This document shows positions 1 through 3,576 of a DNA stretch of 3,576 nt, piece by piece; position 1 is the stretch's first letter; every line of letters starts with the position of its first letter. The translations under genes and the position numbers were made by a program. A model generated the notes under the pieces. The model saw nothing but the letters and a program-made list of their open reading frames with translations, was not told where the DNA came from and made no database searches. The DNA lies in sequence record LC710217.1. One strand, written 5' to 3'. This stretch comes from Escherichia phage MS2.

Positions 1-48
1 GGCCGATTCTATTTTTCGCCGTTTACCTGCTTATCTTTTTCCTGCTCA

Positions 49-55
49 ACTTCCT
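49..55 (+). promoter_or_regulatory. Candidate upstream complementary sequence (UCS) that can pair with the maturation-gene Shine-Dalgarno
   Basis: acttcct (49..55) can pair with aggaggt (135..141) as 6 Watson-Crick pairs plus one G-U wobble. Levivirus maturation-gene translation is known to be controlled by SD sequestration in a long-range 5' UTR helix. The exact partner is assigned by inspection only. Confidence 0.4.
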
Positions 56-134
56 GTCGAGCTAATGCCATTTTTAATGTCTTTAGCGAGACGCTACCAT
101 GGCTATCGCTGTAGGTAGCCGGAATTCCATTCCT

Positions 135-141
135 AGGAGGT
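135..141 (+). promoter_or_regulatory. Shine-Dalgarno sequence of the maturation (A) protein gene
   Basis: aggaggt lies 7-8 nt upstream of the GTG at 149..151. This is a strong, near-consensus SD. Confidence 0.85.
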
Positions 142-148
142 TTGACCT

Positions 149-1330
149 GTGCGAGCTTTTAGTACCCTTGATAGGGAGAACGAGACCTTCGTCCCCTCCG
201 TTCGCGTTTACGCGGACGGTGAGACTGAAGATAACTCATTCTCTTTAAAATATCGTTCGAACTGGACTCCCCGTCGTTTTAACTCGACTGGGGCCAAAAC
301 GAAACAGTGGCACTACCCCTCTCCGTATTCACGGGGGGCGTTAAGTGTCACATCGATAGATCAAGGTGCCTACAAGCGAAGTGGGTCATCGTGGGGTCGC
401 CCGTACGAGGAGAAAGCCGGTTTCGGCTTCTCCCTCGACGCACGCTCCTGCTACAGCCTCTTCCCTGTAAGCCAAAACTTGACTTACATCGAAGTGCCGC
501 AGAACGTTGCGAACCGGGCGTCGACCGAAGTCCTGCAAAAGGTCACCCAGGGTAATTTTAACCTTGGTGTTGCTTTAGCAGAGGCTAGGTCGACAGCCTC
601 ACAACTCGCGACGCAAACCATTGCGCTCGTGAAGGCGTACACTGCCGCTCGTCGCGGTAATTGGCGCCAGGCGCTCCGCTACCTTGCCCTAAACGAAGAT
701 CGAAAGTTTCGATCAAAACACGTGGCCGGCAGGTGGTTGGAGTTGCAGTTCGGTTGGTTACCACTAATGAGTGATATCCAGGGTGCATATGAGATGCTTA
801 CGAAGGTTCACCTTCAAGAGTTTCTTCCTATGAGAGCCGTACGTCAGGTCGGTACTAACATCAAGTTAGATGGCCGTCTGGTGTATCCAGCTGCAAACTT
901 CCAGACAACGTGCAACATATCGCGACGTATCGTGATATGGTTTTACATAAACGATGCACGTTTGGCATGGTTGTCGTCTCTAGGTATCTTGAACCCACTA
1001 GGTATAGTGTGGGAAAAGGTGCCTTTCTCATTCGTTGTCGACTGGCTCCTACCTGTAGGTAACATGCTCGAGGGCCTTACGGCCCCCGTGGGATGCTCCT
1101 ACATGTCAGGAACAGTTACTGACGTAATAACGGGTGAGTCCATCATAAGCGTTGACGCTCCCTACGGGTGGACTGTGGAGAGACAGGGCACTGCTAAGGC
1201 CCAAATCTCAGCCATGCATCGAGGGGTACAATCCGTATGGCCAACAACTGGCGCGTACGTAAAGTCTCCTTTCTCGATGGTCCATACCTTAGATGCGTTA
1301 GCATTAATCAGGCAACGGCTCTCTAGATAG
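149..1330 (+). CDS. mat: Maturation protein (A protein / assembly protein), GUG-initiated, 393 aa
   Basis: ORF of 393 codons starting GTG at 149 and ending TAG at 1328..1330. The translation (MRAFSTLDRENETFVPSVRVYADGETEDNSF...LDALALIRQRLSR) matches my recollection of the MS2 A protein. A GUG start with a strong upstream SD is the known arrangement. First gene in canonical levivirus order. Confidence 0.96.
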   Translation: MRAFSTLDRENETFVPSVRVYADGETEDNSFSLKYRSNWTPRRFNSTGAKTKQWHYPSPYSRGALSVTSIDQGAYKRSGSSWGRPYEEKAGFGFSLDARSCYSLFPVSQNLTYIEVPQNVANRASTEVLQKVTQGNFNLGVALAEARSTASQLATQTIALVKAYTAARRGNWRQALRYLALNEDRKFRSKHVAGRWLELQFGWLPLMSDIQGAYEMLTKVHLQEFLPMRAVRQVGTNIKLDGRLVYPAANFQTTCNISRRIVIWFYINDARLAWLSSLGILNPLGIVWEKVPFSFVVDWLLPVGNMLEGLTAPVGCSYMSGTVTDVITGESIISVDAPYGWTVERQGTAKAQISAMHRGVQSVWPTTGAYVKSPFSMVHTLDALALIRQRLSR

Positions 1331-1343
1331 AGCCCTCAACCGG

Positions 1344-1366
1344 AGTTTGAAGCATGGCTTCTAACT
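1344..1366 (+). promoter_or_regulatory. Coat-gene initiator hairpin with the AUG in the loop, preceded by SD ggag (1342..1345)
   Basis: agtt (1344..1347) pairs with aact (1363..1366) and gaagc (1349..1353) pairs with gcttc (1357..1361), leaving atg 1354..1356 as the loop. GGAG sits about 8 nt upstream of the ATG. This matches the well-studied MS2 coat initiator hairpin whose stability tunes coat translation. Confidence 0.7.
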
Positions 1367-1746
1367 TTACTCAGTTCGTTCTCGTCGACAATGGCGGAAC
1401 TGGCGACGTGACTGTCGCCCCAAGCAACTTCGCTAACGGGGTCGCTGAATGGATCAGCTCTAACTCGCGTTCACAGGCTTACAAAGTAACCTGTAGCGTT
1501 CGTCAGAGCTCTGCGCAGAATCGCAAATACACCATCAAAGTCGAGGTGCCTAAAGTGGCAACCCAGACTGTTGGTGGTGTAGAGCTTCCTGTAGCCGCAT
1601 GGCGTTCGTACTTAAATATGGAACTAACCATTCCAATTTTCGCTACGAATTCCGACTGCGAGCTTATTGTTAAGGCAATGCAAGGTCTCCTAAAAGATGG
1701 AAACCCGATTCCCTCAGCAATCGCAGCAAACTCCGGCATCTACTAA
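1354..1746 (+). CDS. cp: Major coat (capsid) protein, 130 aa including the initiator Met
   Basis: ORF from ATG 1354 to TAA 1744..1746, immediately followed by an in-frame TAG 1747..1749 (tandem stops). The translation MASNFTQFVLVDNGGTGDVTVAPSNFANGVAEWISSNSRSQAYKVTCSVRQSSAQNRKYTIKVEVPKVATQTVGGVELPVAAWRSYLNMELTIPIFATNSDCELIVKAMQGLLKDGNPIPSAIAANSGIY matches the MS2 coat protein as I recall it. Confidence 0.98.
   Translation: MASNFTQFVLVDNGGTGDVTVAPSNFANGVAEWISSNSRSQAYKVTCSVRQSSAQNRKYTIKVEVPKVATQTVGGVELPVAAWRSYLNMELTIPIFATNSDCELIVKAMQGLLKDGNPIPSAIAANSGIY
1446..1452 (+). promoter_or_regulatory. Min Jou long-distance interaction, 5' partner (inside the coat gene)
   Basis: tgaatgg at 1446..1452 is the exact reverse complement of ccattca at 1757..1763, just upstream of the replicase start. 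The 7-bp helix does not extend on either side. It corresponds to the known MS2 interaction that represses replicase initiation until ribosomes translating the coat gene open it. Confidence 0.8.
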
Positions 1747-1924
1747 TAGACGCCGGCCATTCAAACATGAGGATAACCCATGTCGAAGACAACAAAGAAG
1801 TTCAACTCTTTATGTATTGATCTTCCTCGCGATCTTTCTCTCGAAATTTACCAATCAATTGCTTCTGTCGCTACTGGAAGCGGTGATCCGCACAGTGACG
1901 ACTTTACAGCAATTGCTTACTTAA
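1697..1924 (+). CDS. lys: Lysis protein L, 75 aa, in the +1 frame overlapping the coat 3' end and replicase 5' end
   Basis: ORF from ATG 1697 to TAA 1922..1924. The translation METRFPQQSQQTPASTNRRRPFKHEDNPCRRQQRSSTLYVLIFLAIFLSKFTNQLLLSLLEAVIRTVTTLQQLLT has the hydrophobic C-terminal segment typical of MS2 L. It matches my recollection of MS2 L except N at residue 27, where I recall Y. There is no strong SD, consistent with the known coupling of L translation to coat-gene termination. Confidence 0.93.
   Translation: METRFPQQSQQTPASTNRRRPFKHEDNPCRRQQRSSTLYVLIFLAIFLSKFTNQLLLSLLEAVIRTVTTLQQLLT
1757..1763 (+). promoter_or_regulatory. Min Jou long-distance interaction, 3' partner (upstream of the replicase start)
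   Basis: ccattca is the reverse complement of 1446..1452 (tgaatgg). Confidence 0.8.
1765..1783 (+). promoter_or_regulatory. Translational operator (TR) hairpin: coat-protein binding site and packaging signal covering the replicase SD and AUG; loop variant with A at -5
   Basis: acatgaggataacccatgt. Stems acat/atgt and gg/cc, bulged A at 1770 (-10), 4-nt loop 1773..1776 (ataa), replicase ATG at 1780..1782, SD gagga at 1769..1773. The canonical MS2 operator as I recall it is ACAUGAGGAUUACCCAUGU with loop AUUA. Here position 1775 (-5) is A, not U. Confidence 0.9.
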
Positions 1925-3417
1925 GGGACGAATTGCTCACAAAGCATCCGACCTTAGGTTCTGGTAATGACGAGGCGACCCGTCGTACCTTAGCTATCGC
2001 TAAGTTACGGGAGGCGAATGATCGGTGCGGTCAGATAAATAGAGAAGGTTTCTTACATGACAAATCCTTGTCATGGGATCCGGATGTTTTACAAACCAGC
2101 ATCCGTAGCCTTATTGGCAACCTCCTCTCTGGCTACCGATCGTCGTTGTTTGGGCAATGCACGTTCTCCAACGGTGCCTCTATGGGGCACAAGTTGCAGG
2201 ATGCAGCGCCTTACAAGAAGTTCGCTGAACAAGCAACCGTTACCCCCCGCGCTCTGAGAGCGGCTCTATTGGTCCGAGACCAATGTGCGCCGTGGATCAG
2301 ACACGCGGTCCGCTATAACGAGTCATATGAATTTAGGCTCGTTGTAGGGAACGGAGTGTTTACAGTTCCGAAGAATAATAAAATAGATCGGGCTGCCTGT
2401 AAGGAGCCTGATATGAATATGTACCTCCAGAAAGGGGTCGGTGCCTTTATCAGACGCCGGCTCAAATCCGTTGGTATAGACCTGAATGATCAATCGATCA
2501 ACCAGCGTCTGGCTCAGCAGGGCAGCGTAGATGGTTCGCTTGCGACGATAGACTTATCGTCTGCATCCGATTCCATCTCCGATCGCCTGGTGTGGTGTTT
2601 TCTCCCACCTGAGCTATATTCATATCTCGATCGTATCCGCTCACACTACGGAATCGTAGATGGCGAGACGATACGATGGGAACTATTTTCCACAATGGGA
2701 AATGGGTTCACATTTGAGCTAGAGTCCATGATATTCTGGGCAATAGTCAAAGCGACCCAAATCCATTTTGGTAACGCCGGAACCATAGGCATCTACGGGG
2801 ACGATATTATATGTCCCAGTGAGATTGCACCCCGTGTGCTAGAGGCACTTGCCTACTACGGTTTTAAACCGAATCTTCGTAAAACGTTCGTGTCCGGGCT
2901 CTTTCGCGAGAGCTGCGGCGCGCACTTTTACCGTGGTGTCGATGTCAAACCGTTTTACATCAAGAAACCTGTTGACAATCTCTTCGCCCTGATGCTGATA
3001 TTAAATCGGCTACGGGGTTGGGGAGTTGTCGGAGGTATGTCAGATCCACGCCTCTACAAGGTGTGGGTACGGCTCTCCTCCCAGGTGCCTTCGATGTTCT
3101 TCGGTGGGACGGACCTCGCTGCCGACTACTACGTAGTCAGCCCGCCTACGGCAGTCTCGGTATACACCAAGACTCCGTACGGGCGGCTGCTCGCGGATAC
3201 CCGTACCTCGGGTTTCCGTCTTGCTCGTATCGCTCGAGAACGCAAGTTCTTCAGCGAAAAGCACGACAGTGGTCGCTACATAGCGTGGTTCCATACTGGA
3301 GGTGAAATCACCGACAGTATGAAGTCCGCCGGCGTGCGCGTTATACGCACTTCGGAGTGGCTAACGCCGGTTCCCACATTCCCTCAGGAGTGTGGGCCAG
3401 CGAGCTCTCCTCGGTAG
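1780..3417 (+). CDS. rep: RNA-directed RNA polymerase (replicase beta subunit), 545 aa
   Basis: ORF from ATG 1780 to TAG 3415..3417. The translation begins MSKTTKKFNSLCIDLPRDLSLEIYQ and ends TFPQECGPASSPR, and contains the polymerase motif IGIYGDDIICPS. Last gene in canonical levivirus order, with its start embedded in the operator hairpin. Confidence 0.97.
   Translation: MSKTTKKFNSLCIDLPRDLSLEIYQSIASVATGSGDPHSDDFTAIAYLRDELLTKHPTLGSGNDEATRRTLAIAKLREANDRCGQINREGFLHDKSLSWDPDVLQTSIRSLIGNLLSGYRSSLFGQCTFSNGASMGHKLQDAAPYKKFAEQATVTPRALRAALLVRDQCAPWIRHAVRYNESYEFRLVVGNGVFTVPKNNKIDRAACKEPDMNMYLQKGVGAFIRRRLKSVGIDLNDQSINQRLAQQGSVDGSLATIDLSSASDSISDRLVWCFLPPELYSYLDRIRSHYGIVDGETIRWELFSTMGNGFTFELESMIFWAIVKATQIHFGNAGTIGIYGDDIICPSEIAPRVLEALAYYGFKPNLRKTFVSGLFRESCGAHFYRGVDVKPFYIKKPVDNLFALMLILNRLRGWGVVGGMSDPRLYKVWVRLSSQVPSMFFGGTDLAADYYVVSPPTAVSVYTKTPYGRLLADTRTSGFRLARIARERKFFSEKHDSGRYIAWFHTGGEITDSMKSAGVRVIRTSEWLTPVPTFPQECGPASSPR
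2794..2805 (+). other. Catalytic YGDD motif (RdRp motif C) within the replicase
   Basis: Codons tac ggg gac gat in the rep frame encode Y-G-D-D within IGIYGDDII. This is the conserved active-site motif of levivirus replicases. Confidence 0.9.
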
Positions 3418-3576
3418 CTGACCGAGGGACCCCCGTAAACGGGGTGGGTGTGCTCGAAAGAGCACGGGTCCGCGAAAGCGGTGGCTCCACCGAAAGGTGG
3501 GCGGGCTTCGGCCCAGGGACCTCCCCCTAAAGAGAGGACCCGGGATTCTCCCGATTTGGTAACTAGCTGCTTGGCG
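3418..3576 (+). other. 3' untranslated region with a series of stable stem-loops; the terminal hairpin is truncated
   Basis: GC-rich noncoding tail after the rep stop. Hairpins read by eye: 3431..3444 (ccccg-UAAA-cgggg), 3450..3465 (gtgctc-GAAA-gagcac), 3470..3481 (ccgc-GAAA-gcgg), 3487..3500 (ccacc-GAAA-ggtgg), 3503..3514 (gggc-UUCG-gccc) and 3541..3553 (cggga...tcccg). The 5' arm of the terminal hairpin (ggtaactagc, 3558..3567) and its loop (tgcttg, 3568..3573) are present, but the 3' arm and terminal CCCA are missing. Confidence 0.8.

Follow-up and report, generated by a model that had tools for sequence, protein, structure and literature searches.

An adenine at position -5 of the MS2 replicase operator loop, probably recurrent in culture and possibly weakening coat-protein control

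The coat protein of phage MS2 and the operator hairpin at the start of the replicase gene are a textbook example of an RNA-protein switch and serve widely as a molecular tool, although the fitness value of the interaction is less clear than its biochemistry. When bound to the hairpin, the coat protein keeps ribosomes from entering at the start of replicase (PMC9894550). The loop base U-5 stacks on Tyr85 of the coat protein, and C-5 binds more tightly (bioRxiv 10.1101/2021.08.10.455819; PMC1635273) by means of an extra intramolecular hydrogen bond (bioRxiv 10.1101/2021.08.10.455819). The loop with A at this position, GAGGAUAACCC, is among those analyzed in human cells in a 2026 preprint, in which AUAA bound the coat protein less readily than AUUA (PMC12803234). 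Binding was detected for AUAA only at a predicted stem dG below -10 kcal/mol and for AUUA at about -5 kcal/mol, and on stable stems the fraction bound by AUAA was reduced by only about 5-10% (PMC12803234).

The stretch of DNA analyzed here (the window, 3576 bases) is a near-complete MS2 (Emesvirus zinderi) genome whose list of open reading frames contains the four usual genes. Its nucleotide sequence is 99.4% identical to that of NC_001417 (window 40-3575) and 99.8% identical to that of MK213795, an ATCC-type stock (window 40-3545), whereas natural strains are 92-97% identical to it, that is, 3-8% different. The identity of at least 99% to the reference and ATCC-type sequences and the gene order mat-coat-L-rep place it in laboratory-lineage MS2. 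Window coordinates equal NC_001417 coordinates plus 19; substitutions such as T1756A are named by the reference coordinate. The features concerned are, in window coordinates:

149-1330: maturation protein gene, from the open reading frame list.
1354-1746, plus strand: coat protein gene, encoding the trans-acting repressor; the protein is that of reference MS2.
1697-1924, plus strand: lysis gene L, 75 amino acids, overlapping the coat gene end, the operator and the replicase start.
1748-1783, plus strand: match to Rfam RF02359, 'Bacteriophage MS2 operator hairpin', consisting of a 17-nt single-stranded leader and the hairpin.
1765-1783, plus strand: translational operator (TR) hairpin of the replicase gene, from sequence, fold and Rfam RF02359.
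1769-1773, plus strand: GAGGA, the replicase Shine-Dalgarno region, in the 5' strand of the hairpin.
1775, plus strand: the variant base, A against T/U in the reference (T1756A); operator position -5 and first base of L codon 27.
1780-3417, plus strand: replicase gene (RNA-dependent RNA polymerase beta subunit), 545 amino acids, from the open reading frame list and the NC_001417 annotation.

The operator (window 1765-1783) reads ACATGAGGATAACCCATGT. It has a 7-bp stem, a bulged A at 1770 (-10) and the loop AUAA at 1773-1776. The minimum free energy structure, (((((.((....))))))), lies at -5.3 kcal/mol (z = -3.0 against shuffled sequences) and is the same for AUUA and AUCA loops; the mean pair probability of the helix is 0.78 in a 61-nt local fold and 0.94-0.96 in longer contexts. 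The full-length match to RF02359 scores 56.4 bits against a gathering score of 40, and of the conserved consensus bases only the one at loop position -5 is not matched. Both the Shine-Dalgarno sequence and the replicase start codon fall within the hairpin, the ATG at 1780-1782 lying in the 3' strand of the stem. Numbered from this ATG, base 1775 is position -5. It is A in the window and T in NC_001417 (T1756), in the 'ancestral' stock GQ153927 and in MK213795; thus the U(-5)A change, giving a loop AUAA in place of AUUA, that an earlier note had read from the letters alone is confirmed by alignment. The adenines at -7 (1773), -4 (1776) and -10 (1770) are all present. The MS2 coat consensus loop, A-N-Y-A, has a pyrimidine at -5; since 1775 is A, the hairpin is an operator by position and descent rather than a consensus high-affinity site.

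Three described operators are close to this one. That of wild-type MS2/R17 shares its position, stem, bulged A(-10), A(-7), A(-4), Shine-Dalgarno sequence, AUG and predicted fold and energy, and differs in the conserved U at -5. The AUCA variant, the high-affinity C(-5) form used in MS2 tagging, is likewise a single substitution at -5 with an unchanged fold, but it strengthens coat binding, whereas the A of the window is disfavoured. The third is the operator of the sister species GA (Emesvirus japonicum, group II), which has the same architecture and naturally carries the loop AAAA; an operator can thus work with A at -5. GA, however, also has A at -6 and has its own coat protein, which reportedly tolerates a purine at -5 and has Ser at the site of MS2 Asn87. 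The window, with its AUAA loop and an MS2 coat protein with Asn87, does not have a GA-type operator/coat pair. Its coat protein is identical to the reference MS2 coat and, in a PDB search, to solved or crystallised MS2 coat chains; Tyr85 and Asn87 are kept, and a search of the window for a compensating coat change (e.g., at Asn87) found none.

The substitution had no effect on predicted energy, pair probability or accessibility of the start site and Shine-Dalgarno sequence in 19-, 61-, 154-, 381- and 547-nt contexts. Because predicted folding is unchanged, an effect at the RNA level must come through the reader of the loop. The earlier note expected a purine at -5 to weaken coat binding, in agreement with the published data, in which binding is weaker but not abolished (bioRxiv 10.1101/2021.08.10.455819; PMC12803234). 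As the native operator stem reaches only -5.3 kcal/mol, the binding loss of AUAA may be appreciable in the phage. By analogy with AUAA hairpins that bind in cells on more stable stems, the hairpin of the window is a candidate replicase repressor site for the coat-protein dimer.

Adenine at -5 was found in 26 of the 289 phage records covering the stretch. The carriers are LC710218.1, a sister record of the window, and 25 line-3 (L3) clones of the MS2 experimental-evolution series FJ799467-FJ799712 (Betancourt 2009, Genetics 181:1535; host E. coli TOP10 F'). The ancestor clone of the L3 experiment has T (U) at 1756, and the 61-nt context around T1756A is identical between the L3 clones and the window. 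With generation counts derived from clone names and sequential accession order, A(-5) was present in 1/11 L3 clones at generation 40, in none at generation 45, in 3/17 at generation 50, in 12/21 at generation 60 and in 9/15 at generation 70, when it was still unfixed. The two fully sequenced A(-5) clones have just two changes relative to the L3 background (253C, 1697G), T1756A and C3056T; the latter is synonymous in replicase (Leu432) and completely linked to T1756A in L3. Since the window has T1756A without C3056T, T1756A is the more likely driver in the L3 haplotype. One late A(-5) clone, L3.G70.15, has a synonymous AAT to AAC change in the coat Asn87 codon (window 1615-1617); Asn87 contacts the -5 base, and the change is probably a coincidence.

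The variant is not seen everywhere that MS2 has been passaged. No record assignable to line L2 (about FJ799544-607) is one of the 26 carriers, and the variant is likewise absent from the other laboratory-passage sets HQ332xxx, JF7197xx, GQ1539xx and JQ9663xx; T1756A is therefore not a general laboratory adaptation. Text searches of the literature found no paper that names U1756A or T1756A. Public databases have contained the substitution since 2009, and the -5 loop position has been a subject of biochemical study for decades, so the variant is to be regarded as already known and, apart from the points discussed below, offers nothing new in kind.

In nature, U at -5 is conserved. It is present in R17, M12, J20, DL1, Hu-Sh-YMS, FrSaffron and JP501 and in about 11 'ATTCC-type' records. 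A scan of JGI/ENA metagenome contigs and IMG/VR with ACATGAGGATNACCCATGT gave two genuine MS2 contigs (one from IMG/VR and one from ENA), both with U; 24 other metagenome hits were rejected as chance matches in unrelated contigs of about 1-78 kb. None of the natural group I strains checked has A at -5. The reference or relatives carrying A together with Asn27 of L, which the earlier note had named as the counterexample to its interpretation, are thus not to be found among them, and the combination is limited to the evolved clones and LC710218.1. This confinement of the A variant to culture-derived material suggests that it carries a cost outside the laboratory.

How the window and L3 came to share the variant can be judged from their remaining differences. 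The L3 T1756A clones resemble the window in having the identical substitution and a second shared change, G253C:

272, plus strand: G253C, maturation protein Gly42Arg; G in the ancestor, C in line-2 and line-3 clones.

Unlike the window, they carry A1697G and C3056T and the ancestor markers at window 1644, 1704, 2752 and 3057. The window has neither these background markers of the evolution laboratory nor 1716G and 3075T of L3, and its descent from the L3 line was rejected on this ground. The derived bases common to the window and L3 clones are 272C (G253C), 1775A (T1756A) and 3318T (C3299T), the last being synonymous, found in one generation-70 L3 clone and natural in R17 too. At position 253, C is present in 161 of 237 records, and all 60 among the matches listed are FJ799xxx clones; every clone that could be assigned to a line is from L2 or L3, and the change is absent from the ancestor and from every reference stock. 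G253C is strongly recurrent in culture and is possibly tied to pilus binding or host entry.

With about 8 private changes in the window lineage and about 10 derived site-and-base states in L3, in a genome of 3.5 kb, the chance of a two- or three-change overlap is below 1e-4 by our own rough estimate. The overlap is therefore reasonably read as the result of recurrent selection, or at the least of a mutation that recurs strongly, and it points to parallel selection in culture and not to shared descent. Because the change arose independently in two lineages, it was most likely favoured or at least tolerated. That the U(-5)A operator variant is genuine and recurrent in culture can be held with high confidence. 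The earlier note had offered adaptive or laboratory-selected mutation as one of its options, and this option is supported: the variant base increased in frequency in an independent evolution line and is seen again on another background.

The overall best explanation, to which we give a probability of roughly 0.5, is a weakened operator that was favoured or tolerated in culture. U-5A places a purine, the disfavoured class, at the loop position in contact with Tyr85 of the coat protein by stacking, and the affinity for the unchanged coat-protein dimer would be moderately lowered. More coat protein would then be needed before replicase translation stops, and shut-off would come later; the margin by which the operator hairpin, the strongest packaging signal, leads the others would also shrink. 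The change is viable, and serial passage in culture most likely favoured it or at any rate tolerated it; Tyr27Asn in the dispensable domain of L would probably be a passenger. For weaker coat-protein binding as the source of a selective value, we would put the odds at even or slightly lower.

A viable lineage with a weakened loop, seen twice independently, implies that a suboptimal operator is tolerated in culture and may even profit the phage. Operator binding was found in older reports not to be strictly essential, which fits a tolerated weak operator. Another change in the operator hairpin that rises in laboratory passage and alters L is the Delta-1764 'cheater' deletion (Meir et al., 2020; PMC7442481). 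Unlike T1756A, which leaves all genes intact, this deletion causes a frameshift that destroys replicase, so that a helper virus is needed, and it reportedly binds the coat protein more tightly (PMC7442481).

Two further substitutions in the L3 clones lie close to the operator. G1737T (window 1756, where the window itself has the wild-type G) is 19 nt 5' of the variant base 1775. It is carried by all L3 clones without A(-5) by generation 70, linked to A1875G (replicase Ser39Gly), and it increased from 3/21 clones at generation 60 to 6/15 at generation 70; G1737T and T1756A never occur together in L3. Two generation-20 clones of line L2 also have G1737T. The change is silent in L and lies outside every other gene, so that any selection on it would work at the RNA level. 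T1764C, a change in the stem of the operator that likewise leaves L unaltered, occurs in one generation-60 L3 clone. That three changes fall within 30 nt of the start of replicase points to this control region as a target of selection in culture.

Fold prediction places base 1756 next to a long-range helix with the following strands:

1446-1452, plus strand: UGAAUGG, 5' strand of the long-range helix, inside the coat gene (fold prediction).
1757-1763, plus strand: CCAUUCA, 3' strand of the long-range helix, adjoining 1756 (fold prediction).

In the 381-nt fold, six of the seven pairs have P = 0.99 and the outermost 0.27; in the 547-nt fold the helix is not formed. This long-range helix couples replicase translation to coat translation (PMC9894550) and restrains the former. 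In the 381-nt fold, G1737U adds an eighth pair (P = 0.88), and in a 154-nt fold it weakens the local structure by about 2 kcal/mol. If the predicted extra pair is real, G1737T would act in the direction opposite to derepression, and for this reason it is ambiguous whether T1756A and G1737T are two routes to one phenotype. The proposal that T1756A, G1737T and T1764C are alternative adaptive changes, T1756A retuning the time at which the coat protein shuts off replicase, is a tentative one that we consider rather doubtful. If it were true, the wild-type operator would have an affinity tuned to natural conditions and less than optimal for rapid growth in culture, and the variant would provide a single-base handle on how much coat-operator repression contributes to MS2 fitness.

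The best-surviving alternative to a weakened operator favoured or tolerated in culture is that a neutral or slightly harmful change was fixed by drift or hitchhiking, through plaque-purification bottlenecks or linkage. Stocks of RNA phages fix mutations at each bottleneck, the window lineage has accumulated only its few private changes, several of which are synonymous, and the variant is missing from most laboratory-evolution data sets. In L3 it was fully linked to C3056T and never became fixed. Against this, an identical transversion at one site arose in two independent lineages that also share G253C, and in L3 it increased steadily for 20-30 generations, accompanied by a synonymous change alone. 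The strict natural conservation of U, moreover, argues that the site is not neutral in general. We consider drift or hitchhiking unlikely.

A slightly less probable alternative places the selection on the lysis protein: Tyr27Asn would shift the timing of lysis (e.g., to an earlier time, favoured under rapid transfer), the operator change being a tolerated side effect. As base 1775 lies downstream of the coat stop and upstream of the replicase ATG at 1780, L is the only reading frame affected. Both statements of the earlier note on coding hold here: the replicase frame is untouched, and codon 27 of L (1775-1777) changes from TAC (Tyr) to AAC (Asn). The window sequence ...KHEDNPCRR... corresponds to ...HEDYPCRR... 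in MS2, R17, M12, J20, DL1, Hu-Sh-YMS and FrSaffron. With 75 amino acids, Leu48-Ser49 and a +1 frame across the coat-replicase junction, the product is recognizable as MS2 L; its C-terminal membrane domain is intact, residues 28-75 are those of R17, and residue 27 is the sole difference from reference MS2. Exact-sequence look-ups in public assemblies returned no record of the Tyr27Asn L protein or of the maturation protein of the window.

The variant is thus non-synonymous in L, which speaks for this alternative. In vivo, lysis is faster with N-terminally truncated L, and both oligomerisation and insertion into the membrane are modulated by the soluble domain (PMC10688784), so a modulatory effect of Tyr27Asn is conceivable; A1697G, recurrent in the same experiment, gives Gln7Arg in the same domain of L. 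On the other hand, this N-terminal soluble domain is dispensable for lysis, the lytic activity residing in the C-terminal 35 residues (PMC10688784). DnaJ binding is retained in L truncations up to residue 32 (PMC10688784); residue 27 is therefore not needed for it. G1737T and T1764C, which compete with the variant in L3 and lie within the 30 nt concerned, are silent in L. Tyr27 is kept in all natural group I strains checked, but this conservation is not separable from that of the operator loop, and Asn at residue 27 requires A at -5. A1697G (window 1716), which is silent in the coat gene, recurs in both L2 and L3 and also among the HQ332xxx laboratory populations; in the window this base is still the wild-type A.

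The sister record LC710218.1 (MS2 'GI_B') bears on a further alternative, that A at -5 is a natural polymorphism of wild group I wastewater phages. Its source field reads wastewater, Yamanashi, Japan. Within window 45-3555 it differs from the window by one base, and it has every private change of the window, A at -5 included. Its ends carry an Illumina TruSeq adapter and index (1-48, 3560-3605), whereas the end of the window carries E. coli agaD; as the ends differ, LC710218.1 was assembled separately, from what is essentially the same stock. In spite of the wastewater label, the 99.8% identity to MK213795 contrasts with the 3-8% by which natural isolates in the collection deviate, G253C is typical of culture-evolved lines, and A at -5 is found in no other natural strain. 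A wild origin of the variant is accordingly improbable. Together, the variant and G253C mark the genome as culture-passaged laboratory MS2, not a wild isolate, as we infer despite the label of the sister record. For users who take 'GI_B'-type records as environmental references, this laboratory origin matters.

A sequencing or assembly error in the window contig, the remaining option of the earlier note, would be in keeping with the careless assembly of the contig (a 5' agaD stretch, true termini absent, a sister record with Illumina adapters), but it is effectively excluded: LC710218.1, assembled separately, and 25 clones of an unrelated laboratory have the same base, and the contig interior otherwise matches laboratory MS2 at 99.8%.

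The ends of the window are artificial. Because its first 44 bases match E. coli agaD (PTS galactosamine transporter subunit IID) at 100%, as in thousands of E. coli genomes, the 5' end is a host-phage chimera, formed by template switching or in assembly. MS2 homology starts at base 40, giving a 5-nt overlap (TCCTG) with the agaD stretch, and the genuine MS2 5' terminus (20 nt, GGGTGGGACCCCTTTCGGGG) is absent. A Nanopore adapter remnant at 1-39 was considered and rejected, the best adapter alignment being weak and the agaD match perfect. At the other end (3563-3576), the window ends 13 nt before the terminus of MS2, so that TAGTTACCACCCA is absent, and its final base is G where the reference has T.

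LC710218.1 was deposited reverse-complemented, with its gene features placed as for the forward orientation. The sole genome-internal difference between the two records is at window 2596, T in the window and A in GI_B, giving replicase Ser273Cys; T at this position was absent from all other sequences compared. An adjacent double substitution, TC to GT at window 881-882, changes codon 245 of the maturation protein from Ser (TCG in the reference) to Val (GTG). In GQ153927 the same codon is CCG (Pro), indicating that this residue varies among laboratory stocks.
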